Assembly (NCBI RefSeq): GCF_041146345.1
Contig: NW_027191419.1
Coordinates: 248,001 to 312,000 of the forward strand
Direction of reading: 5' to 3'
Source of the DNA: Neodothiora populina
Taxonomy: Eukaryota
Length of the DNA: 64,000 bases
The notes beneath the pieces were generated by a model. It had not been told where the DNA came from. It saw nothing but the letters and a program-made list of their open reading frames with translations, and ran no database searches. Both the position numbers and the translations under genes were made by a program. Shown here piece after piece: positions 6,845-61,737 of this stretch (position 1 is the stretch's first letter; each line of letters starts with the position of its first letter).

Positions 6845-9800
6845 ACGGCGATGTTTGACGTCGACGAAAAGGAAGCGATTTCCATGAGCATGCGGTGGAG
6901 TGTGGCTAGGTTCAGCATGTGGTGGTCATCGTTAAAAGAGGCGTATAATGAGGATTGGGATGAAGGAGTTCGAGCGTCATGATACGAATATTGCGGTATC
7001 CTCATCATGCGCCATCATCGAGTTGTGTTAGCAGCGTGGTGTTGTCGGTTTGCTGGTGAAGATAACGGTATAATTGGCGTAAATTTGGGCGAATCATGCT
7101 TTTTCCGTAGTTGGGACTTGGTACTTTATGAAGCAGAGCAAGGATGGAAGCTATGGTTAGTTGTCGAGCGAAGAGGTGGAAAGGTACATCCGAGTCTTTG
7201 AAGGAAAACAAAAGTTACCTAAGGTGTTACGCATTGCCTCATCATCTGGAGGATTTCGTAGTAATGACGATACCTACCTTATCTTTTTTTAGCCGTGTAG
7301 GGGACTTCTAGAAGCACAAACTGTGAAGCTCAATTGCCCACGTGCGAAGTAGGCGAAATAGCCCGTTCCCGCGACAGCGACAGGCTCGACAGGTGACAGG
7401 TGCACTGACGTTGGAGTCTGTGAGGTAAGGTGAGGTATCTCAGGTTTCACATTTCCCTGGCGGCGGCGGTCCGCTTCCTGGTGTGCATGTGGGATTCTTT
7501 CTGCAGTTGTCATAATGATGTCGACCTTGACCATGCCATTGGCTCAAGAAGCCTGGTTCGCTATAAAGCCACGAGTCACTCCCATATCGATCTAGGGGGG
7601 TCTTCTTCTGGACCTTCAATGCGAGTCAAACAGACAAGTTGCAAAGGCCCAACAAGGAGGTCAAACATCGAGGACTAATGACCAGCAGCCTAATTATGTA
7701 CGCCTCATGAATATGAATTAGTGACTCAAACGTGAAGGCGCATAAGGAATCGCTTGTTCTCCTCATTTACTTAGCATCTATTTCCGCCTAGGCGTTTATC
7801 CCTTATACAAATCCAGAGCTTTCCTGATCATCTTAACTTTATTAGTGGCCGTATATGTATATACAAGTACGGTGGCTTACATATATGTTCTTTTCCTTCT
7901 CTTTTCCTCGTCGCTTCTCGCTCTGGCAGTCCTGGGTCACGGCACAGAGAATATTCGGCATGATGTTGGTTTAGTCTTTCCTGCACAGACTTGAGTGTAT
8001 CTGTACACCAGTCAAGTCGACGTGCGGTGAATCGACACTTGTGATCGTCGCGCCTAGACGATGGTTTTGTTCGATAGACTTGATTGTGCCAGTGTCCAAC
8101 ACATCTCAGGGTGTTCACGCAGGCCTACAAGCAGTAGCAGAGGCAGGTCCGGCTGCTCGCGAGAGACCCATTTGTTAGCCACCACGCACATATCGAATTT
8201 GCGCCGAGCATATCGAGGTTGAGACGGCATCAATCATGCACCTCGCCAAGTCAGTCGAGTCAACTTCATCAACAGATCAGGCCCCATGAAGGACAGTGAT
8301 CATGTTCCCTAAGATCACGCACACAAGACTTGACGTTAGGCAGAGGCTGGGCTGCCGTCAGCAGTATCTCTGTACTTATGCAAAGGTCCGATCGTCAGAC
8401 ACTAAACCGTAAACGGGCACAGCGCAATGTAACTTAGGTCTGAATTTTTATAGACGGTGCTTCTGCCCGGCTCCGAAGTCTGAGCGATCGAGTCATCAGA
8501 GCACCTTCGTGCGGACCGCCTCTACTAAGTCTATGGACTGTATGGCAGGTGGCTTTAGGTCCTCTCGGATAGCCTGTGGCTTTTCATCAGGCCACTCACG
8601 CTTGCGCCCTCTTCTGCTATCATCTCATATCTATCGATCCTGCCAGCGGTATGTTGACCTGGTACTTGGTCTTTTTATGCTCAGAAGGCAGAATGGATCG
8701 GCTCGCAGCACATTGATCGATCACGACGGATTTTTTACGAGAGTCACCCACACGCGACGAGATGCTGTACGCCGCTGTGCTGCGCTGCAGGGAGCCATCA
8801 CATGAAACGATATCAGCCACTTGAACACCGAGTCGGTGCACTTGGATTCCATGTTCCTCCGCAGAGCGAGACCTGTGTCTGATGTCGACGCCTCCGACGG
8901 TAATCAAATCTCAATCGATTGCATCTTCCGCGCTTCGCCAATAAATTGCATAAGCCACCCGTGGACTGAACGCATCATGCTCCTACTGCGACATACACAC
9001 ACTCCTGCTCGAGAAGAAGGTACACTATACGGGCTGGTTGGTTTTGCAAGAAGCACTTGAAGGAGCTGGCGTGCTGTTTTCGTGCTTTTCCCGTGCGCGA
9101 AACTTGGTCACAATCTACGGCTGTCGTCGGAACACAGGTGCGCCAACCTTCACATCGCGCGATCACATGCTGCGTTACGCTCGCTTGACACATATGGTAA
9201 AGCAGCATAAGCTCGCAAATGGTGCACAGTATTCTGGTTGGGCAACATGGGCATAGTGACAGAGACATTGACCTGTTCGCTTCTCGAGGTGCCGAGGACC
9301 TTATGAACTCTACGAGCTAGGATATACACATAAACTGGGTAAATGTGGTCATCTATCCTCTGGGCATGCGATCACATGTGCCGTGGGCTCCATCTTCGGT
9401 GTCGGTCTCAACTCCGGTGGTGTCAAGGTAAGTTTCGCACTCCTGAAATGGGGTCACTCGGAACGTTTACATCGAAGTCTCAGATGGTCTTTCTCCTTCG
9501 TGAGAGGGTACAAGCGCCCAGACAGACTCGGAACAGAGCAAGGTTATGTTCGTGTCGCCATGTTTGTGTGTTGAGAAAGTGACGTGACATGATGGTGGTG
9601 AGATGAACGGATCTCGTGAGACCACCCTCAAAGGGAGCAATACCTAACTGTTTGCCTTGTGTGTACTGGCAACATGCTCCCTTCCTTCACCAAATTATCG
9701 TAGAAATAAATGTATATTTTGTCGATGTTCGACGTGAATGTCACCTTCGGACTTTTTGTTTGAACAGAGCTCGCGCATCACTAAGCTATCGTCCGTCTAC

Positions 9801-24145: not shown

Positions 24146-26009
24146 TCATATATCATTACAATCCAAGTTCCAGATCTCGATGTGCTTCACATCATCGAGT
24201 GTGGCCGGCCAGACCTCCTTTCTCCATTCCAGGCGTCCGTCATCGTCAGTCCGTTGGACGGCCTTGCCAATGCGGAAGACCCTGTCGCCTATGCCAGCCC
24301 ATTTCATTCTCGAGTTGAGTGGTATCCTCCAGTAAATTGGGTCGTTGCTGGTCCAGTTCATGGTGTCTCGTAGATCTGAATCTATGGCCATGGCCTTTTC
24401 CAGCCACTCGTTGCTGAGTATGCGCAGCGCTGTAACGTTTCTCAAGAAAGGAGCGACCAGGCGCATGGCACCGGGTTCATCTTCAGAAAGTCCAAGACCA
24501 AGTTGCTCAAGCTTCGGACACGAACTGACGAGTTCGGCGATTTGAGTGCCCGACAAAGCCCACTGGTTGCTCAGTAGGAGCTTCTTCAAGGAATGTCCGT
24601 GCTTGGTGAATAACACATGCAGATACTCTGCACAAAGTGCGACGCCGGCTTGATCTGACGATCTGATGGGCGATTGGGAAATCGACGAGTACGAGCTCAC
24701 CGATGCCGGTGTCGCAGTCGAGCGAGGCGAGTCAGTCACTAGTGTGGTGCTGCTGCTGGCTCTCTTCATGTGTTGCGATGGCGTATTGACGAAATAAAGC
24801 TCTTCCAGTCCTGAGAAGGTGCCGACAATTTTGGCGTGCGATTCCGATGGTTCACTGACTCTGAAGGCCTTGAGATTCTGGAAGACCTTCCCATCAGGAA
24901 TATTCTTCCAGCTGTCGTCGACAAATATCGTAGCTGCCGCACCACCTGCTCCTCCAAAGCAGTTTATCAGAGCTGTGCTCCGCAACGTATTCGGATCTCC
25001 AATCTCTTTCAGGTCACCAGTGTTGATTCCATAGAAATTAGAGAGAGCAAAGTGCTCGAGAGGGATCTTGTATTGAGCTTCCAGACATCTACTAAAGTAT
25101 GCGCGCAAGTTGATGCTGGGCTCCGCTGCTTCGCGCATGCGGGGGCTCCATTGAAGTCGAAGGATTCTGAGCTGTTTCGAGTGTAACAACAGTAGAGATA
25201 TGTCGTCGGGATAACAGACTGGATCGATATTGGAGACGCGCAAGTTGCGCAAAGAAGGCAATGGTGGCAGCATGATGATGGGACGAGGATCCCGACATGA
25301 CGGGAACCTAATGTCCAGTGAAACCAAAGCGTTGCGGGACGCCAGACCTTGATAGATGGTTTTGAGCGGTTTCATGTCCAGTTCCCACCTGTTCACTATC
25401 AGTACCGAGTTCTCTGTGCTGGCTAAGTCAAATTACCTGAAAGACTTCAGGTTGACCATCTTGTCTATCGCAGCTCTTAGTGCAATTCCCAGCAGCATCG
25501 TGCTGTCCGGCACCCTGCCCACTGTGTACTCGTCTATATGCGCATCCTCCCAAGTACCTGAAATGTGAAAGTCATTTACCAAGGCTGCCGAATTACTTGT
25601 AGCAAGGCCATTGAGAGCCATGGTGAATGGACTGCCACTCCCAAACCCTGCCGGTTTGCCATCGATAAATTGTAACTCAGGATATGAACGGAGTGTGACT
25701 TTTGTGTATAGTTGCGGGAGAGTCATATAATACATAAGACGACATGTTCGTGTGACTCGCGCAATATCAGCGGTGTCGTCGATCTGGATGCGTGTGGTCA
25801 GCAGCCAGGGTCGTGGGACAACGAATGCGACATGGGACTCGCGACCAACTTACATAGCTGATTATGCTCGCAATAACATTTAATGGCAGTGAGAGACCCC
25901 TCGCACCTTGCATGCCCGGATGCGTCGATACGGGCGACACAGCAAGGACTTCCGGCGGGACATCTCGTCGCAGTCTATTGTACGTTTTCTCACTGAGTCT
26001 CGACACCAT
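24146..26009 (-). CDS. Conserved fungal protein with N-terminal F-box-like motif and LRR/RNI-like body
   Basis: ATG 26009; introns 25853-25784 (GTAAGT..GCTGAC..CAG) and 25436-25389 (GTAATT..ACTGAT..CAG) join three ORF-track pieces in frame. LPLNVIASIISY/IDDTADIARVTRTCRLMYYMTLPQLY is F-box-like; LxxLxL repeats follow. Confidence 0.8.
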
Positions 26010-26685: not shown

Positions 26686-27137
26686 TCAGCCACCGTGTAA
26701 GGTCGATACAAAGACAATGTTGTCTCTTGGTTGGAGTTCGTATTGGTCTTCGCCTTCGAGTTCCCAATCCGCATCGTTGATGAGCACCAGTATACCAGGT
26801 CGCCTGCAGTGAATGTCAGTATGCACAGCCAGATCTTAGCATACAATCGGGTTGTTTGTATAGGTCTTCCTTACACCGAGTCGTCAAGAATGAAAAGTTC
26901 TTTCTTCTCTTTTTGCATCATGTTTTCGCACAGATGCTTGATCAGGAATGCAACATTAACCGGACGTCCCTGCTCGTCGTGTGATGGAAGGGACACCTTG
27001 TGATTTCGCTGATTCGAGAAAATCATCTCCAGACCACCTCTGCGCAGGAGTGAGTAGGCTTGGCGAAGATTCTAATGTGGCATCGGTCGGTAGACCACTT
27101 ACGTGAATTCGACGTTGACGTCTATTTGCCCCGCCAT
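26686..27137 (-). CDS. URM1: Ubiquitin-related modifier 1 (sulfur carrier for tRNA U34 2-thiolation; urmylation), 105 aa
   Basis: Not in the ORF track. Exons 27137-27103, 27039-26875, 26803-26686; introns GTAAGT..CAG (63 nt) and GTAAGG..ACTGAC..CAG (71 nt). Translation [30 protein letters not shown]...[47 protein letters not shown], with the Urm1 signatures and C-terminal di-Gly. Confidence 0.97.
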
Positions 27138-27483
27138 GGCTGTGAAGTAAGGCAGAGCGAGCTTGCGATGAAGAAGACTTGCCTTGCTGTATGGCTATAA
27201 GATAGTTCCCTGGTTGTGTTCGTCTTCAGTCACGTAGTATAGTGCAGGATGCAGCAAGTGGATATTGTCATTCAGCTGCTTCCAGGATTGTTAGAAGCGA
27301 AAAGTCTCCCCAGATTTTTTGACTGCATCATCTTCTGCCCGCATCCAGAAATTTTACCACCACCCATAATAGACTATATAACTGAGAAGAGACCAGATTG
27401 CCGACCACAATACGAAGAAATCGTAATGCTGCTCTAGTAAAAGACTTCTGATATAGAAAGGGTAAACAGTGCAAGAACATTGC
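27138..27483. promoter_or_regulatory. Putative bidirectional promoter shared by URM1 and ELP2 (346 bp ATG to ATG)
   Basis: Divergent start codons at 27137 (-) and 27484 (+) leave 346 bp for both 5' UTRs and promoters. Confidence 0.7.
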
Positions 27484-30003
27484 ATGATGAACAAAACACT
27501 GGACTTCATTGCCGCGGGCGGCAACAGACATCCTTCGGCAGCAGATTGGAACTCGGATGTTCTTGCCTTTGGAACTGGCAACAACATTGCAATCTGGAAT
27601 CCACACGACCCTCAGGCACACGGCATCAATTCACTCTTATCCGGGCATACAGATATTGTGAATGTAGTGAAGCTTTATCGGGATCCCAAACTTCAGCGTC
27701 AAGTACTTCTCAGTGGCTCCGCAGACAAAACTATTCGGCTCTGGATTAGAGATACAGATACTGGTTCTTTCACCGCCACTCAGACCTTGACAGAGCATAC
27801 AGCTTCTGTGAACGCTATCGCAGTGCTACCTGATGCTGGACTTCTTATCACTGGAGCTGCTGATGCGACGTTAAAAATATGGCGTCTCGAGCCACTCACG
27901 GCAGAGGTAAACTTGCAATCCTTCCCTTCTATTTTTACAATCGTTCGGCTAATCAGTGCATAGTCTGGACCACACATTGAAGTGAAGCTAATTCAGAGTA
28001 TATCTTTGACCCCAAGATTCTTTCCTCTTGCGTTAGCAATCACGCGCCTCTCAGATGCTCAAATTGTATTCGCTGTAGCTGGCACAACCTCGTCATTACG
28101 AGTGTTCGTCCAGAAAGGCGATCTCTTCGCTCATGGCGCCATTCTTACTGGCCATGAAGGCTGGATTCGGTCTCTCGACTTTGTCCAGGAGAGCTCTGCA
28201 GAGGACAGTGACATCCTGCTAGCCTCAGCGAGCCAAGACAAGTATATCCGCTTGTGGCGATTTCACAAGGGTTCTGAGCTACCTGCAACAGCCTCTGCTG
28301 CTAATGACCCTACTCTCGGAGCTCTTGGTAAGTCTTTGTCGAACAAGGCACATTACATTGGAGAGGACAACTCGACACATTCGATCACTTTTGAAGCACT
28401 TCTTATTGGCCATGAAGACTGGATCTACACTGCGCGCTGGTGTGGTGAGGGACAAGCAAGTTCAGGTCCACGTTTGCTTACCGCGTCTGCCGACAACTCT
28501 CTGGCCATATGGGAGCAGGAGACCGAATCGGGCATATGGGCATGCACAGCAAGACTCGGAGAGATCAGTTCACAGAAAGGATCAACTACCGCCACTGGTA
28601 GCACTGGTGGGTTCTGGGTTGGACTATGGTCACCCGAGGGTAGTGCAATCGTCAGCCTAGGAAGAACCGGTAGTTGGAGAGTCTGGAGCTACCACTCAAG
28701 TGAAGACAGGTGGCTGCAGCAGATTGGAATCACTGGGCATGTCAGAGAAGTCAAGGATATTGCTTGGTCGAGGGATGGTGCATATCTCATGTCTACCGGA
28801 TCAGATCAAACGACACGTCTTTATTCGGAATGGAAGCGATCTGGAGTCACGACTTGGTATGAGATGTCCAGGCCACAGATTCACGGGTATGATCTGAATT
28901 GCTTGGACTCCATAAAATCAACACAGTTCATATCAGGAGCTGACGAGAAACTTTTGCGTGTCTTTAACAAGCCAGGAGCTGTCGCCAAACTCATGAGCAA
29001 ACTCGGCGGTACTGAAGATACTTCGGCCAGTGACCTTCCTGAAGCCGCGAATATCCCGGTCCTGGGGTTGTCGAACAAGGCTGTTGCCACTGCCACTTCG
29101 GAGGAGGAGGCTGCAGAGGAGCTTGCGACGAATGGGCAGTCTTCCAACGATCGCGACGCTGTAGATCCGGTCGCCATTACGCACAAATCCACTTTGGATT
29201 TGGATCATCCACCTTTCGAAGATCACTTAGCCAGGCATACTCTTTGGCCAGAACACGAAAAGCTGTATGGTCACGGCTACGAGATCTCTGCAGTTGCAGC
29301 ATCTCACGACGGTAGCCTTGTTGCGACAGCCTGTCGTGCCAGTTCTATCGATCATGCGGTCATCAGGCTATACGATACCAAGACATGGCATGAGGTGAAG
29401 CCGACACTCGCAGCACACAACCTGACAGTCACAAGCATCACATTCTCCCCAGACGACAACTATCTCCTGAGCACAGGCCGTGATCGCCAATGGGCTCTCT
29501 TCAAGAGAGAAGAAGCAAATTCCACCGTGTACAAATTGCGTGTATCAAACCCCAAAGGTCATTCAAGAATGATCCTCAATTGCTCATGGGCGCCACAGGC
29601 TGCAGGATCAGTCTTTGCCACTGCCGGCAGAGACAAGTCCGTCAAGATTTGGCAAGTACAGACCGAGAGCACCGTCGAATGTAAAGTCACGATACCCACT
29701 ACTGCGGCTGCGACTGCTCTCGCATTCGTTCCCGACTTGGTGTCGGGCAACATGGTGTTGGCATACGGCACAGAGGACGGCACCGTGAGCATTTCGGCAA
29801 TCAGCGGTAACGACTGGGCTGTTGTAGAAACAACAAATATCGACAAGAATGACACGCCTTCGGCCTCAGTCAACGCTCTTCGCTGGAGACCCAATGTCGA
29901 TGGCGACGACAAGCCCGGCCAGCGCCAATTCGCGATCGCGAGTGAAGATCACTCGTTGCGCCTGTTCACATTTGCTGCTCTACCTGGCCAAAACCTAGGA
30001 TAG
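27484..30003 (+). CDS. ELP2: Elongator complex subunit 2 (WD40)
   Basis: ATG 27484; intron 27907-27963 (GTAAAC..GCTAAT..TAG, phase 0). Elp2 signatures GHEGWIRSL, LASASQDKYIRLW, FEALLIGHEDWI, RPQIHGYDL, SGADEKLLRVF, LGLSNKA, TLWPEHEKLYGHGYEI. Confidence 0.96.
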
Positions 30004-30678: not shown

Positions 30679-32244
30679 TTAGACCTCCATCTTGGGCGCG
30701 GCGACCTCGTGGAAGTCGGCCTCCTCGACTGCCTTTCCAGTCTTGAGGTCCATTTCTTGAGCGAAGGTCTCGGTGGGGACCCAGCCGGCAGACTTGCGGG
30801 CGGTGACTTGCTCCATCATCTTGTCGACCTGTTCGAGGGAAAGACCCTTGGTCTCGGGGACGAAGAAGTAGGACCAGACGGCGCACGTGGCGCAGAGACT
30901 TCCCCAGAGGAAGAAGACCTTGACACCGAGGTTGGCCTTGTCCTTGCCGACCAGGTATGGAGTGATGACGGCAATGACGCAGTTCCATAGCCAGTTGGAG
31001 GCAGTGCCGCATGCAACACCCTTAGATCTAATAGGAAGTTGGTAGATCTCGCCAATCACCACCCAGGCGGTAGGTCCCCAAGTAGAGGCGAAGACAGCGA
31101 TGTAGATGCAGACAAAGGCGATGAGCACACCTTGGGAAGCGTGGCTGTGATCAGCGACTCCGACGATGGCAACGATGAATTGACAGACGGTCATGGCTAC
31201 TGCACCCCAGATGAGCAGAGGGCGACGACCGAATCTCTCGATGGTCCAGAAGGAGAGAGGTGTAGAGCAGACGTTGACAATGTCAGTGATCATGGAGATG
31301 AGGAAGGAGTTGTGGATGCCAATGGATGTGAAGAATGTTGTCGAGAAGTAGAAGATGAAGTTGACACCAGTCCATTGCTGGAACATCTGGAGGAAGACAC
31401 CGATGAAGATCTTGCGAGCGTTGCTGTTGCGGTTGCCGAGGCCACCCTTGAAGCAACCGAGCCAGCTGACCTCGCCGACCTGCATCTCATACTCGAAGTT
31501 GGCCTGGATCTCGTTGATCTCATCTGTGATGTAGTCCGAGTCAATTGGTTGACCTCGGATACGAGCCAACGCATTCTTTGCCTTATCCATTTGTTGCTTC
31601 TTGATGAAGTAACGTGGAGACTCGGGAAGCATGAACAGGCCAGAGCCAAGGATGATTGCCCAGGCAAATTGGATGGAAATTGGGATGCGGTAAGCACCAC
31701 TGTTTTGGCGCTTCTCACATGCATAGGTAACACCAGCTGCGAGTAAAAGACCAATGGTGATAGCAAATTGGTAGCAAGAGATGATAGCACCTCTGACCTT
31801 GCGCGGGGCGACTTCGCTCATGTAAGTAATGTTGGTTGCAGAGACGAATCCCACACCGAAACCTGCGATGAGACGACCAACGACCAGAAGTGCGAGCTGA
31901 GATGCTGCCATCTGAAGAATAACACCGACCATGAAAACTCCACAGCCAGCGATAATGACAGTTCGACGACCTATCCAGTCGGCGAGGGAACCCGCGATCA
32001 ATGATCCGAAGAAAGTACCAGCAGAGAGGATGGAAACGGTGAGGGATTGGTTGGAGGCGGAGTACAAGTATGTACCATCCGGCTGTAACGAGCCAAAGGT
32101 CTCGAGAAACTTTTGTGTGCCCATGACTCCATTGATGTAGCCAGAGTCGTAACCGTTGAGGATACCAGCAAAGGCAGCAAAGGCGCACATCATGTACGCC
32201 TTGAGGGTCACTGGCGCCTCAATGCGCTCAGGTGTTAGGGCCAT
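30679..32244 (-). CDS. MFS sugar porter, high-affinity glucose/monosaccharide transporter type (MstA/RCO3-like), intronless
   Basis: GYDSGYINGV, DWIGRR, YMSEVAP..RG, PESPR, QQWTGVNFIFY, ERFGRRPLL, WGPTAWVVIGEI, PETKGLSLE. The start MALTPERIEAPVT at 32244 is preferred because the upstream ATG lies 5' of a TATAAA. Confidence 0.93.
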   Translation of the reverse strand: MALTPERIEAPVTLKAYMMCAFAAFAGILNGYDSGYINGVMGTQKFLETFGSLQPDGTYLYSASNQSLTVSILSAGTFFGSLIAGSLADWIGRRTVIIAGCGVFMVGVILQMAASQLALLVVGRLIAGFGVGFVSATNITYMSEVAPRKVRGAIISCYQFAITIGLLLAAGVTYACEKRQNSGAYRIPISIQFAWAIILGSGLFMLPESPRYFIKKQQMDKAKNALARIRGQPIDSDYITDEINEIQANFEYEMQVGEVSWLGCFKGGLGNRNSNARKIFIGVFLQMFQQWTGVNFIFYFSTTFFTSIGIHNSFLISMITDIVNVCSTPLSFWTIERFGRRPLLIWGAVAMTVCQFIVAIVGVADHSHASQGVLIAFVCIYIAVFASTWGPTAWVVIGEIYQLPIRSKGVACGTASNWLWNCVIAVITPYLVGKDKANLGVKVFFLWGSLCATCAVWSYFFVPETKGLSLEQVDKMMEQVTARKSAGWVPTETFAQEMDLKTGKAVEEADFHEVAAPKMEV

Positions 32245-32400
32245 CTTTGTGAAAGCAGATGAGTGATATAGTGTATGGGAGTGTAGAGATGTAGAGTGTC
32301 TTAGAGTAGATTGTGAGATTGAAGAAGTAAGTGGAGCTTTTGATGTAAGAACTGTTGGATGATGGGGAAATAGAAAGAATGGAGTGCTGGGGAAAGCCTC

Positions 32401-32406
32401 TTTATA
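32401..32406 (-). promoter_or_regulatory. TATA box candidate for the sugar transporter
   Basis: TATAAA on the minus strand about 160 bp upstream of the ATG, followed by a pyrimidine-rich leader. Confidence 0.5.
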
Positions 32407-35400
32407 CCAACTTACACCCATGGGGCAGCCATAGGTGTCTGGTGTTGAATGCCGTTGTATGGCGTTCTGTTCACCATGCTTGTCTGGAGACCAAGCACTT
32501 GAACAGTCTAGAGTGGCGCACGGCCCGCGACTAAGGGCCCAGCCCGTATATCACTCAATCCGGAGAATATGGAGGAAGAACCTTGGAGCCATGAGGTGTG
32601 GCGCTGATAGTGAATGCTTCGATTATAACCTTACTTGGTCGAACCTCGTAACATAGATCTCCACTACATTGCCGTAGTTCCTTGTGCTGTTTTTCTTGTG
32701 AAACGAAACAGATTTCGCAAACTCGAAGCGTGTGCACACGTTTTTTGGCCACCTCCATGGGGTTTCTCCAGATCCACTCTGCAGAGTGGATCCAAAAATC
32801 AAACGCGCCAGTATGATCCGGCCACTGTGTTTGCGGAAGCACGGCACCGCTTTCGAGCATGGCTCCCCATATCGCCCCACTGGTCCAGTGTGTAGCTAAT
32901 TGCAGGAACGTGGAGGGTTCTCGTAACGAGCAATTGTGGAGTCCGGAGGACGACTGATTCATAATCAGCAAATATCAGGAGCCACGTCTGAAGGATGAAG
33001 AAGCTGGTAGATGACACGAGCCGCGGAGCACCACTTTCCAGGTTGTAAGACATCGTAGTAAAGCGGAATGTGGGCGTGAGCAAAATTTACCCATACGACT
33101 TCCTAACGCCTTCTCACTTCATCAGTCATGGCAAGATCTTTTCTCGCACACAATAGCTTGATAGGTGAAAGGTGTTTACTGGTCGTCACCACATGATCAA
33201 TATATTGCTTGCCTTAAGTGTCCGTGATCTTGTCGTGTCAAGCTATAGTGCAAGTATATGTACGGACACCGCCTACGTGGACTTCGTTGGATTGTGAGGC
33301 TCTGAGAGTACTCTTTCGAGTCATTATCGTCGTACCATGAATCTCTATGGTGTGCACGAGACAATCTCCTCACCCAGGATCACCCCCCATTCGCATCTCG
33401 CTCAAGATCTGGCCTGTCTAGTCCTGAAGAGAAATGTCGGGGCCCCGAGTGCAAGGGCATGAACTGTGGATCACGTTGTGTTCGGTCAAGTCCTAGACGC
33501 GGTCGTACGGCGGCGATACTGCGTCACGGCATCCAACTCGGGTTTTAAGCTGATTTCTCTCCAATGATAGATGGGAACGAAGCCCTAATGGATAAGTTTT
33601 CTGGTTCATGGGGTAAGCATGCTATCAAGTCCGAGTCGTGGTATTGCACCTTAGCCAGGCACGTGGAGACCGAGACCGCACCGAAAGATCGCAGGTGCAG
33701 TCTTCTCCATACAGATCTAAACTCATGATGGTCTTTGCATGCAGATCATGGGGCTCTGTGTGACCTGAAAGTCTGGAGCTATAGATCATTCCAGACTTTT
33801 GCTCGAGCAGCTCACTGATTCTGAACCAAAGATGTTTTCATCCTGGGGACAGTTTGTGATGTCGTCTGATATTTTGGCTTTTTGGTTTAGTGGCTAAATT
33901 AAGGTACAGTACATTGAAGTGGTCACGGTGCCATATCTGGTGGCTGAACAACTATCCGCAGCGGAACCTGTTTGCTTCCGAGCATCCGTTAGGCTCGACA
34001 TGTACCTTGGGTACCTTACTGTACTTATACATCTCTCAACTGTCAACCTCTTTTTAGTTTACCTGGAGCCTGAGCATTGCTCGTTACTGACCTATGATGT
34101 CAACTTGCAAGGCATGAGATACGACAGTACAGTTTGCTAAAGTTGTGCAATCGCTATTCGATGAAGACAAGCTTTTTGATGGCCCACTATGGACCATTGT
34201 ACAGTTACCTGCAAGTGCTTACTGTACCTTAAGGTACCTTACCATACAGTACTGTATGTCCGGGATTCGCTGAATACGGAAACGGTATCATGCATAGAGT
34301 CCGGGACACCAAACAGTAACACTGCCATCAGAAGAGAATGCTCAGCCGCTTATACATACAAGTGGTCTCGTCAGTTTCGGTGATCAAGCATAGTGCGTCA
34401 TTATTTCCGTGGTCTGTCTGTCTTCAGCTTGATCATCATCATGTGCACCTCGCTCATCCGCTTCGAGAAGTGTAATGCTCCAAGTGGGGTGATTTGGCTG
34501 TCAAGACGCATTCGAACGGCCGTTTCAACATTCTGGCCTCCCCTGTACTTGCTGAGTCTGGTCAAGATTTCTGAGCATGGATGCTCGCTGGACTGACATC
34601 GCTTCAGCGCTCCCTTACTTCCATCTGGGTGGCGTGATCGGTCATGTAAGCCCAGTCAAAGCATTCAGCGTGTTGTTCGGCGATTATTAGATCCAACAAT
34701 ACTACAGAAAAGGTATAGCCTGTGAGATGGCATGGTTCTCCAATACCAACACCGCTAACAGGTGCATACTGAAGGGCATTGGTGTTAGCGGACCAGTCGA
34801 GATGGCTATAGGAGATTAAAACATGGTAAACCTAACGTCTTCCCCACCGCCTCACCAATTTTGCTGCGATGCACCTAGTCGGTCTGGTCGAGTTGCCTGT
34901 CACGTCGAATTATGACCGTTGAGCATGTGAATCATGTGCATTTTGTAGGTGGTTCATCCAAGCGACGTGCATGGAAATGATCGAGCAATGTCAATGGACC
35001 TGAGCTATTCGACCAATGCGAGAGTAAATGCAGAACTCACTCGAAAATACCAGGTGTCTGTAGCTGTCAACCTCAGCTTCCACAATTTGCGTGAACCTAC
35101 CTCTTACCATAGTCATTCATACAGTTCAGAATGAAGTCAACAGAAATTGAGCCTTTGCAATGAACGATGCGGAAGTGCACAGTTACGGCGCTTTGCGCAT
35201 AAAGTTTCCTAATTGACTGATCTTCCTGGGCATCTCGTTCAATGATGATCCCCCTCATATGACGAAAGTGAAAAGACAGCTACGAAGTGCAGTCGAATTC
35301 ATCCAGCACAGCAGTTGCTAGGAATTGATGTGAAACATTAGTACCGGGGCATAGCAAACGTCGGACGGCTAACGCGCTTGCGTGATCTACAACATGTCTA

Positions 35401-51677: not shown

Positions 51678-52668
51678 TTACCAGACTCTGTTCTCACTCT
51701 TGCCCACAACCTTGCCACCTTTGGAGGTCATCTTGGCCCGGTCCGCACGGCCGAGTCCAGGAGTCTTGAAGAACAGCGAAGGTCCATGGCCCTCTGCGAC
51801 GAGATGACTCAGGTAGCCCCTGTGAGCAGGATCACGGTAGTATTCGAGATCCTTTCTGCTGGCGGGATCCGGTAGTCTGTATCTGTAGTTCTTGGTGGCG
51901 GCGGCGGCTTCCTCAGCCTCTGACTTCTTGGACAGCAGACTGTTGATGGGATCGGTCTCGCCCTTGAGGATGCGCGAAATGGCGGGACGAGTGTAGTAAC
52001 GAGTGGTGACAGTGCCGCCGGCCTTTTCCACAGCGGCGATGGCAGATGCGGAAGCGCGGCTCACGACAATGTTGATGGGAACAGAAATGGGCGATTCGGC
52101 AGCGGTTGTGTTGCGCGCGAGCAGCTTGACTCCGTCCTTTATGCCGTGCAGACAGCGTGATGCACAGAGCTCTTTGAGGGTAATGGGCTTGGTCGGATCC
52201 AATCGACCCTGGGAGACCCAGTGCGCAATGCGATCGAGGTTCACGGGCGACATGTCAACAGAGAAACTGCACGAAGTTCATTCCGTCAGCCTCAAGTTAT
52301 TCTCACATCTTTTTTCCGGTATTGTCCTGAATCAATGCAACGTACTGGTTCTCGAATCCCCTCTCTCCATGCACTACCACCTCGGGCGTCTGACCTCCAT
52401 TGAAGTTCCTGGGCACTTTACCGTGCTGTTTCTGACCCTTGTGACCACGTCCAGATGTTTTGCCCTTGCCAGAAGAGGCACCGCGACCCCTTCGTATCCG
52501 CTTGTTGTAGGCGCCGTCTGTGTCGGAAAGGGTTGAAAGAATGGATGCAGAGCGCTGCTGCTGCTGCTGGTGTTGGGCCTGGCGGAGGAAGGGAGCGAGG
52601 AAGGAGGCGACTGAGGTGTGCGATTGCGGTTGCGCTGCTCGAGCGAGCAGGTTCAGTCGGGGCGGCAT
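51678..52668 (-). CDS. MRPL10: Mitochondrial large ribosomal subunit protein uL15m (YmL10)
   Basis: ATG 52668 with presequence-like N-terminus; RRGRGASSGKGKTSGRGHKGQKQ..FNGGQTP; intron 52345-52267 (GTACGT..GCTGAC..CAG); GVKLL, SRAS..AI.AVE.AGG, YYRDPAHRGYL. Confidence 0.94.
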
Positions 52669-59100: not shown

Positions 59101-61737
59101 CTAGTTGCCGTACTTCTTCTTCAGCCTCTTCTGTGCACGCACATCCTTCTTGAGACGAGGATCAACCATCTTGTATTTACCCTTGACACCGCCAGGTCTG
59201 CCCTTGTTACCTCTGTTGCCACCACGGGCAACAACGACCTTGACAGGCTGTCGCTTCTTGCCGCCCTTGCTGGCCTTTGCCATGAGCTTGGCGATATCTC
59301 TGGACTTGTCCTTTTCGCTGGCGTCTTCGTTGTCAGCCAGGAGCGCAGACTTGCGCTTGAGCTTCTCGAGACGGTTGGCTGCACGGAGAGTCTTTCTCGC
59401 CTTGGCCTCGCGGACCTTCTTGATGGGTCGCGCGTTCAGTGCTCGCATCTTCTCCTTGATAGCAGCGGCGGCCTCTTTGGTAATGGGTCGTTGCAGCTTG
59501 GAGTGCTTACCCTCGTCATCGAGGAACCACTCGGGCAAGCCGTCGACATCGCGTAGCGCGTATTTGTTGAAGTTGTCGTCAAGGAGGTCGTGCTTGGTCT
59601 TTTGACCGGTGGCGAGCTGATGTGCCAGAGTCATGGCTTCTGCCGTGATGATATCGATGGAAGGTTGTCCACTGGCGTTCTGGGGCTCGCTGTCACGATC
59701 CCATTGCGTCTGGTTGTTCTTGACAACCTCGAATCCGCCATCGTCTTCAGATTCCTCGTCCGAACCTGCTTCCTCATTTGCACCATAGTCAGACTCGGAC
59801 TCGGAGTCCTCGGCAGGCGCGACCACGGTCTTGGTCTTTGTGTTGGACGCTTTGAGAGGCGGCGACTGCGAGCTAGAGTCTTCCATCTCGACGCCGCTGT
59901 CTCTGTCCTTTGTCGTCTCGGGCTCGTCGAGATCCATGTCGTCTAGTCCGTCGATACCTTGGAAGATGTCCTGCTCGAAGAAGTTTGCTGCTCGCTTCGA
60001 AAGACCGTTAGTAGGATTGGCGGAGTTGTCGAGGTCGGTGACCAGCTTGTTGCTCTCGTCCTCATCGTACTCAGAGTCAGAGTCGTCTTCGCCACGCGGC
60101 TCGTCAGCGTCGCTGTCGTCTTCTCTGTCTGAAAAGCCCTCGAACTCCTCATCGTCACCGTGGCGCGCTTTTCGTGCTCGCTTGGCGCGGGCCTTGGCGT
60201 CTCTGTCTTCCTTCTGGGTTTGGTAGGCTTCGTACATGTTGTCGAGTTGTCTCTCGAGCTCGTCGCCGAGTTCGTCGTCGGTGACTTCATCGACAACCTC
60301 CTCCTGCTTCTCCTCGACAGGGTTCACCATCTTGCCCCGAGCGAGCTTGCCGACCAAGCCAGCCTTGTCGACGCTCTTGAGCTGGAACATGGAGTCTTCG
60401 CCAAAGGGACCAGCCTGTTCCATACCGATGTCCATGGGTGTAGTCATGTGCATCTGCATGCGGATGATTTCTTTTTGCTTTCTCTCGTTCTCCCTGCGGC
60501 GGTCCTTGCGCTTGCCCTTGGATTCCATGTCCTTCATGTTCTGAATCTCCTCTTGCAGTTTCATCTCCTCGTCCATGTCCTCGACCTCTGCGACTTCGAC
60601 GCCGTCCTGTTCCTTCTTGGCGGCCTCTTCGGCGGCCTTTTTCTGCTTTGATGAGAAACCGAATCGCTCGCGGACCTTGAGACGCCATTTCAAGAGCAGC
60701 CTGAATTCTTTCTTACCCAAAACTTTCAGATCGGCGCAGCAGATCTTGACCTCCTCGGTGGTTTCTGGGAGTTGACTCAGAGTGGCAAGAGCGAGATCGC
60801 CGTTCTTGGATTGATCAAAGCCGAGCTTGTTCATGCCACCGAGAATGGCAATGGGATCCTCAGTCTGGATGAAGTCGCTGGCGGGGACTTCCTTGAACTG
60901 GGTCCAGTCACCGTCCTCGTAACCTTCTCTTTTCCTCTTCTTGACTTCGGGGTTGAAGACCTTGGCTTCATTGTTGGGTGCGGGAGCCTCGACTTCGCTG
61001 AAGGCGTACTTGGGGTCGAGGAATCTGGGGTCGAGGAACTTGGGTGCCTTGAAGCCACGGCAGACGTAGAAGGTCTCGGCGGAGACGTTACGGGAGGAAG
61101 GAGGCTTGGTCTGCTCGACCTTGTTGAAAAGCTGCTTGAAAATCCACTCGAGCTTGGAACTATCCTTTGATCTGAAGACCTTTGTCACGAAGTTTCCGTT
61201 GGGGCCGAGGAAGTCACAGGCCAAGCGTAGAGAGTGCAAGACCAGCTCGTTCTGAGAGAAAGCGTCCTGAACCCAGGCGGTACCGACGTTGGGAGCACCG
61301 TCGTGAATGACAGTGTCTGCCTTCCATGTCTTGAGATGACCTCTGATGATGGCGCGGGTCTTGTCGGTGGTGATGTCGCCCTGGAAGGTGATTGCTTTGG
61401 GGATGGGCTTGATGGGAGTGAGATCGACACCGATAATCAGAGACTTAATCGGCATTGTCTCTGCCGCGACCTGCAGCCACGAACCGGGGGCGGCACACAA
61501 ATCGATCAGACATCTCGACTGCTGGAGGAAACCGAACTTCTTGTTGAGTTGGATGAGCTTGAAGGCAGCACGCGCGCGATATCCCTTTTCTTTTGCAAGA
61601 TAGTAGTATTTATCCAAACGGCCTTTGCCGTGCTGCGCGGGCGATGGTGGTCAGTGATTTTTTCTTTCCTTCTTCTTCTTCCTATAGTTACAGATTGAAG
61701 AAGACGGAAATGCGCGTACCTTTTTCTGGATGGCCAT
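59101..61737 (-). CDS. SPB1: AdoMet-dependent pre-rRNA 2'-O-methyltransferase (FtsJ family)
   Basis: Exon 1 61737-61720 (MAIQKK), intron 61719-61633 (GTACGC..ACTGAC..CAG), then [84 protein letters not shown]. Confidence 0.97.

Follow-up and report, generated by a model that had tools for sequence, protein, structure and literature searches.

Conserved divergent gene pairs of fungi tend to be functionally related, and the known cases include pairs of the H2A-H2B, H3-H4, SNZ1-SNO1, RAD16-RAD7 and FET3-FTR1 type (Davila Lopez et al. 2010, PMC2871058, Table 1 and section 8). In filamentous ascomycetes, the gene content of chromosomes is kept while gene order and orientation are largely randomised, a pattern described as mesosynteny (PMC3219968), and a pair that is kept across classes therefore stands out. 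Here, we describe such a pair, formed by URM1 and ELP2, in a 64,000-nucleotide stretch of DNA from Neodothiora populina (contig NW_027191419.1, positions 248,001 to 312,000; hereafter the window), a member of the Dothideomycetes, order Dothideales. The two genes belong to the two arms of one tRNA modification. Elongator (Elp1-6) makes the 5-carboxymethyl, 5-methoxycarbonylmethyl and 5-carbamoylmethyl (cm5, mcm5 and ncm5) side chain at the wobble uridine U34, and the Uba4-Urm1-Ncs2/Ncs6 pathway adds the 2-thio group to the same U34 in the tRNAs for Lys, Gln and Glu. The two arms meet in mcm5s2U34, and mutants of Elongator and of the Urm1 pathway have similar phenotypes.

Like the pairs compiled in PMC2871058, URM1 and ELP2 are non-homologous, serve one process, are separated by a short divergent spacer and stay together across classes while the surrounding gene order decays. 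They differ from those pairs in that their products do not form one complex, being instead part of two pathways that converge on one nucleotide, and in that their co-expression is a prediction. In Schizosaccharomyces pombe, the Elongator-associated gene dph3 likewise shares a divergent promoter region with its neighbour msh3, and the dph3 effect was exposed by marker integration at the neighbouring locus (PMC5668335). Unlike the partner of ELP2, msh3 is functionally unrelated to dph3, and the abstract, in its opening part, claims no deep conservation of the arrangement. Prokaryotic operons and divergons also link the genes of one pathway physically as a means of co-regulation. Unlike in operons, no polycistronic transcript joins URM1 and ELP2, and the label "operon-like" given by the original prediction was too strong for two separate monocistronic, intron-containing eukaryotic genes placed 5′ to 5′ on opposite strands. 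Table 1 of PMC2871058 does not include the pair; in the available supplementary files of that paper, a search for "URM1" gives 0 occurrences, and "ubiquitin-related modifier" appears once, for SUMO. A full-text literature search, which leaves subscription journals largely outside its reach, found no description of the linkage. The URM1-ELP2 pair adds to a known class, that of conserved bidirectional pairs with a functional link, and does not constitute a new type of system.

Among the loci compared below, the pair is real, anciently conserved, divergent and tightly spaced. We consider it probable, at roughly 0.6, that this old head-to-head pair of the Pezizomycotina is driven by one bidirectional promoter, has coupled mRNAs and has been kept by selection.

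The URM1 and ELP2 genes in the window

URM1 lies on the minus strand and comprises three exons encoding 105 amino acids, separated by introns of 63 and 71 nucleotides with GT..AG ends. Exon 1 (27103..27137) opens with the start codon at 27137-27135 and is followed by exon 2 (26875..27039) and exon 3 (26686..26803). The Pfam Urm1 profile PF09138 is matched by exon 2 over positions 8-56 (expect value, E, 2.5e-9) and by exon 3 over positions 59-96 of 96 (E 4.5e-18), both above the cut-off of 21.8 bits, so that the two exons together match the whole beta-grasp domain and identify the product as Urm1. Solved Urm1 chains are also matched (6yuc_G and 7q5n_G), the former by exon 2 with E 4.9e-16. Exon 3 carries the stop codon and the C-terminal Gly-Gly of the protein, whose translation ends in ..STLHGG*; in Urm1, this Gly-Gly is the site of thiocarboxylate formation. 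The spliced product of the model built here is identical to the public N. populina protein AAFC00_000070.

ELP2 lies on the plus strand, with two exons, a single 57-nucleotide intron and a product of 820 amino acids. Exon 1 (27484..27906) encodes the first WD40 blades (WD40, PF00400, E 9.1e-16), and exon 2 (27964..30003) consists of 679 codons and a stop codon. The exon 2 product matches solved yeast Elp2 structures (5m2n_A/4xfv_A) with E 2.5e-147 over residues 18-671 and the mouse/human Elp2 chains 8avg_B and 8ptx_B with E 1e-106 to 1e-107, while the generic WD40 proteins that come next reach only 1e-26. A length of about 800 amino acids, two WD40 propellers and similarity to solved Elp2 along the full length identify the protein as Elp2, and exon 2 is 100% identical to public AAFC00_000071, annotated as Elongator complex protein 2 of N. 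populina. Two in-frame ATGs open the gene (27484-27489); in the public model, translation begins at the second of them, at 27487, and gives 819 amino acids, compared with 820 from the first. Judging from orthology, the product would assemble into Elongator and would be needed for the mcm5/ncm5 modification of U34.

The gene models bear out the arrangement first proposed from the letters of the window, with URM1 (minus, ATG at 27137) and ELP2 (plus, ATG at 27484) divergent and 346 bp between their start codons. The identities assigned to the two genes and the biochemistry of the two arms were also right. The spacer (27138..27483), a putative bidirectional promoter, has a guanine-cytosine content of 0.44 and would measure 349 bp if the public ELP2 start at 27487 were used; the outer limits of the pair, 26686 and 30003, are the stop codons of URM1 and ELP2. 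At 346 bp, the distance falls well within the limit of about 1 kb between 5′ ends that is used for divergent bidirectional pairs. The original prediction that no 5′-5′ spacing in the window is tighter agrees with the one other divergent pair that was compared (at about 13.9-14.7 kb), whose spacing is at least about 640 bp. An operon or polycistronic unit was also considered and is ruled out, URM1 and ELP2 not being on one strand.

Distribution of the pair and of its spacer

The synteny sample was drawn from metagenome contigs scanned, with 10-kb flanks, using an ELP2 profile whose underlying alignment took in representatives as low as about 33% identity. Matching stretches numbered more than 593 and confirmed ones 527; the 80 best served as loci, so the sample leans towards ELP2 genes that are near the profile. 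URM1 was sought in these loci by tblastn with the URM1 exon peptides of the window, and its absence was taken as informative where at least 1.2 kb of DNA was present upstream of ELP2, which left 13 of the 80 loci too short to call. Grouping the loci at 90% ELP2 identity gave 59 lineages. Clade labels derive from best-hit identities, the similarity of URM1 to named proteins and FastTree trees, and class names from the nearest public proteins (Dothideomycetes; Pyronema, Agyrium and Aplosporella; Eurotiales, many Leotiomycetes, Xylariales and Xylona).

Several loci are near-identical in ELP2 to named fungi: L040 to Penicillium (98%), L021 to Cadophora malorum (97%), L004 to Aureobasidium (99%), L072 to Alternaria (96%) and L067 to Thermoascus (88%). 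In the Sordariomycete-like loci (L050, L047/48), URM1 is 79-87% identical to that of Sordariales, and the ELP2 tree places them as a fully supported sister group of Xylariales. The 16 loci of clade C are Lecanoromycete-like by URM1 (at most 83% identical to Stereocaulon), and part of them adjoins Xylona. Clade A and Eurotiales come out as sister groups (support 82), and clade F falls within the Dothideomycete-like group. Four Pezizomycete-like loci have an ELP2 that is 71-74% identical to that of Pyronema, and four distant loci, at about 40% ELP2 identity, lie outside the Pezizomycotina on the tree.

Of the 67 informative loci, 54 have URM1 immediately upstream of ELP2 and on the other strand, and a programmed check gave a divergent orientation in all 54. 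In the other 13, tblastn found no URM1, and neither did a second search that used 23 named URM1 proteins representing five classes. By lineage, the head-to-head pair is present in 39/45 over seven class-level clades: Dothideomycete-like 17/19, clade F 2/3, clade C 10/10, Eurotiomycete-like 3/3, clade A 1/2, Leotiomycete-like 4/6 and Sordariomycete-like 2/2. The Pezizomycete-like (0/2) and more distant (0/3) lineages are without it. Named genomes add to this count. URM1 and ELP2 bear consecutive locus tags in N. populina (000070/000071), Zasmidium cellare (28617/28618), Curvularia clavata (05340/05339) and Dothideomycetes sp. NU459 (g4731/g4732). For nine more named species, the longest contig recorded for URM1 and that recorded for ELP2 are equal in size, as in Lachnellula occidentalis (47,597 bp) and Melanomma pulvis-pyrius (34,218 bp); in Tothia and Meristemomyces these contigs differ in size, which may reflect different assemblies or loss.

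Consequently, a chance, lineage-restricted adjacency without persistence is extremely improbable. It would fit the absence of the pair from the Pezizomycete-like and distant lineages, as well as from Saccharomyces cerevisiae, in which we take the two genes to be unlinked, and it is refuted by the 54 loci, 39 lineages and seven clades as well as by the consecutive tags of the four genomes. The synteny survey that the original prediction had called for finds a pair that is neither restricted to one lineage nor matched by its flanks, which lie beside it in 5/11 Dothideomycete-like lineages for one flanking gene and in none for the other; the best other neighbour of ELP2 is kept in 24/45.

Placed on an ELP2 tree with named anchors, presence of the pair requires a minimum of five state changes, which we interpret as a single gain once the Pezizomycetes had diverged, together with four losses (in L056; in L032 with L046; in L042/L051/L065; and in L068). 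The genes upstream of ELP2 in loci devoid of URM1 encode a pyridoxal phosphate decarboxylase, PARG, ATG43, coatomer epsilon, Med20 and dihydroxy-acid dehydratase; being unrelated, they point to separate rearrangements. Within the reach of this tree, the survey shows that URM1 and ELP2 have been neighbours since after the Pezizomycete lineage split off, that the pair has stayed divergent, at about 150-530 bp, in most Dothideomycete-, Eurotiomycete-, Lecanoromycete-like, Leotiomycete- and Sordariomycete-like lineages, and that the outer neighbours were reshuffled while the pair stayed. By dated phylogenies, the age of the pair is probably several hundred million years.

The start codons of both genes could be placed in 34 loci and in the window. 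Among these 35, the start-to-start gap is 144-528 bp in 34, with a median of 252 bp, and one outlier measures 1582 bp. The gap spans 167-490 bp in Dothideomycete-like loci, 180-275 bp in clade C, 144-186 bp in clade F and 315-528 bp in Leotiomycete-like loci, and it measures 179 and 254 bp in the Eurotiomycete-like and 323 and 372 bp in the Sordariomycete-like loci. Two 5′ untranslated regions and two core promoters must fit into such a spacer, so a shared nucleosome-free region would be the natural reading. The very short spacer in all clades also speaks for the main rival of the co-ordination reading, namely structural constraint only: interleaved promoters of two needed housekeeping genes within 150-500 bp would offer inversions and translocations almost no neutral breakpoint, the shared role in tRNA modification would be coincidental and no co-regulation would have been selected. 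We regard this explanation as possible rather than probable.

Sequence elements within the spacer bear on both readings. They were sought in 29 non-redundant URM1-ELP2 spacers, a set in which the relatedness of the sequences inflates the figures. The heptamer AAGCG[AC]G, picked out post hoc, occurs in 11 of the 29 spacers and in three clades (Dothideomycete-like, Leotiomycete-like and clade C), a count reached in 0 of 500 shuffles. Its density is 1.49/kb in the spacers compared with 0.21/kb in the rest of those loci, a seven-fold enrichment that argues against structural constraint only, with the reserve due to a post hoc choice. The spacers concerned are those of L003, L009, L014, L016, L021, L022, L024, L027, L031, L041 and L070. 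The element often appears as CTAAGCGAG or CCAAGCGCG. As a candidate shared element of the spacer, it is suggestive only. An expectation-maximisation motif of width 10 scored 41.0 compared with 30.0-35.6 and beat 8 of 8 shuffles, a weak result given related sequences and few shuffles. The best unbiased 8-mer, TAAGCGAG, present in 7/29 spacers from two clades only, was rejected, as it merely equals the top 8-mer count in 100 shuffles. The core of the ribosomal RNA processing element (RRPE; 6/29 spacers, reached in 33 of 500 shuffles) and the polymerase A and C (PAC) element GATGAG (4/29 spacers, reached in 348 of 500) are not enriched, and neither are CCAAT and TATA in the same 29 spacers. The results for RRPE and PAC, together with the lack of a pan-clade motif, are what structural constraint would lead one to expect.

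Genes surrounding the pair

Among neighbouring genes, URM1-ELP2 is the only pair kept in all seven clades, and the breakpoints detected in these loci fall on both sides of it and rarely between URM1 and ELP2. Neighbours were counted with a tblastn threshold of 1e-10, at which small, fast-evolving genes may be missed across classes. The next-best kept neighbour of ELP2 is an ABC ATPase gene on its 3′ side, present in 24/45 lineages over all nine groups: clade C 10/10, Eurotiomycete-like 2/2, clade A 2/2, Leotiomycete-like 7/7, Pezizomycete-like 3/3, and 0 in the Dothideomycete-like (0/12), clade F (0/2), Sordariomycete-like (0/3) and distant (0/4) lineages. As far as the surveyed loci tell, this neighbour is lost in Dothideomycete-like, Sordariomycete-like and clade F loci. 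The identity of the gene goes no further than a single-domain ABC ATPase. An example lies at L056:12211-13410 (-), and homologues are located 2.1-3.3 kb past the start of the ELP2 exon-2 match in the 24 lineages. L056 is the sister locus of L057 in clade A; it has lost URM1 and carries a PARG-like gene upstream of ELP2 instead. A convergent ABC_tran-WD40 pair, the latter partner being ELP2, is listed for A. nidulans, A. terreus, B. cinerea, C. immitis and S. sclerotiorum in file 4 of the supplement to PMC2871058, and this is an independent match to the ELP2-ABC ATPase linkage found here.

A third tRNA-modification gene occurs within about 6 kb of URM1 and ELP2 in part of the sample. MOD5 was found near ELP2 in 14/35 lineages, at 3.1-6.3 kb from the point where the ELP2 exon-2 match begins. 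In clade A, the gene at L057:13089-14792 (+), two genes 3′ of ELP2, encodes a MOD5/miaA-type tRNA isopentenyltransferase (Pfam IPPT, E 6.2e-63; TIGR00174, E 2.9e-60, above its cut-off), and MOD5 occupies homologous places in L011, L014, L017, L020, L023, L027, L034, L037, L039, L041, L053, L062 and L067. By lineage, MOD5 is present in clade C (8/10), Eurotiomycete-like (2/2), clade A (1/2), clade F (1/2), Pezizomycete-like (1/2) and Dothideomycete-like (1/9) loci; it was not found in the Leotiomycete-like (0/4) and Sordariomycete-like (0/1) lineages, in most Dothideomycete-like loci or in the 64-kb window.

The spread of MOD5 over six groups might suggest that the pair is the remnant core of a larger tRNA-modification neighbourhood (URM1 and ELP2, divergent, followed by the ABC ATPase gene and MOD5) that existed in early Pezizomycotina and was selected as a unit. 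This is quite improbable. MOD5 is missing from the groups just named, its strand differs in the Pezizomycete-like locus, it modifies A37 and not U34, an unrelated ABC ATPase gene intervenes, and the pattern resembles ordinary decaying synteny. An extended version of the co-ordination reading, in which a selected anticodon-loop gene neighbourhood combines one URM1/ELP2 promoter carrying an AAGCG[AC]G-type element with an ancestral MOD5, responsible for N6-isopentenyladenosine at position 37 (i6A37), two genes away, and in which chromatin would jointly set the supply of the thiolation carrier, of Elongator and of isopentenylation, also appears unlikely. If true, it would make the neighbourhood a eukaryotic, non-metabolic equivalent of the functional gene clusters of bacteria, maintained over hundreds of millions of years.

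Other neighbours are more restricted. Genes for a porin and for 6-phosphofructo-2-kinase (PFK2), together with two small frames, were found near ELP2 in clade C, Eurotiomycete-like and clade A loci only. A Pfam search with the small conserved frames past URM1 and beside the ABC ATPase gene returned nothing usable. In the window, the gene at 24146-25849 (-), located 3′ of URM1 and matched by no Pfam family, is the flank found beside the pair in 5/11 Dothideomycete-like lineages, at 32-67% identity, and nowhere else; the flank found in none of the surveyed lineages is the sugar transporter gene at 30679-32421, on the ELP2 side. Elsewhere in the window, two further genes of the translation apparatus occur, with an Spb1-type rRNA 2′-O-methyltransferase with FtsJ, DUF3381 and Spb1_C domains encoded at 59101-61650 (-) and a ribosomal protein of the L27A/L15 family at 51678-52277 (-).

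Proposed coupled supply of Urm1 and Elp2

The co-ordination reading can be set out as follows. The short spacer would place both core promoters within one nucleosome-free region, from which one bidirectional promoter would drive URM1 and ELP2 and couple their mRNA levels; the conserved arrangement suggests that the two genes are switched on together. Because Urm1, the sulfur carrier of 2-thiolation, and Elp2, the Elongator subunit of the mcm5 arm, act on the same wobble uridine of the tRNAs for Lys, Gln and Glu, a balanced supply of the two proteins would be useful, and selection would retain the pair. The chance that ELP2 has a same-pathway neighbour is of the order of 0.5% by our estimate, taking about 25 such genes in about 10,000, and this speaks against structural constraint only. 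So does the enrichment of conserved divergent fungal pairs for functional relatedness (PMC2871058, section 8); Table 1 of the same source also contains many conserved divergent pairs that have no evident functional link, as structural constraint would predict. Co-ordination of the two modification arms is preferred because of their known biochemistry, the trend among conserved divergent pairs and the low prior for such a neighbour.

A number of observations weigh against the co-ordination of the two arms by a selected promoter. ELP2 keeps the functionally unrelated, convergent ABC ATPase gene over an even wider span than URM1, including the Pezizomycetes, and this old linkage, seen in 24/45 lineages, means that long-lived microsynteny by itself is no proof of functional selection; it also counts in favour of structural constraint. 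Of the six subunits of Elongator the pair takes in a single one, and the thiolation arm, which has several genes, is likewise represented by one only. It is missing from the Pezizomycete-like and more distant loci and presumably from S. cerevisiae, so the linkage is not needed for the pathway. On the tree-based reading, the pair has been lost at least four times without obvious consequence, and four independent losses are equally in line with a purely structural hold on the pair. In L057 of clade A (7981-9562), which accounts for the 1582-bp gap, URM1 and ELP2 are still divergent and extra minus-strand frames lie between them, one of which has a weak FAD_binding_3 match (E 7.8e-5); this spacer looks like the result of an insertion. 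No motif common to all clades was found in the 29 spacers, and inspection of the window's own spacer shows no exact AAGCG[AC]G. For clades A, C and F, assignment to a class follows from FastTree and similarity to named proteins and is provisional, and sampling is thin for Sordariomycetes (two informative lineages) and Eurotiomycetes (three).

Deeply conserved bidirectional pairs with a functional link are useful in fungal engineering as compact dual promoters, and URM1-ELP2 is a clean further example among the few that eukaryotes are known to have. The pair offers a simple testable system, in which the spacer measures 150-500 bp, lineages that are naturally uncoupled can act as controls and a candidate shared motif is at hand. 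That most classes of the largest subphylum of fungi have kept the pair, in genomes otherwise shuffled in gene order, is evidence from comparative genomics that both arms of this wobble-uridine modification may be coupled at the level of transcription.

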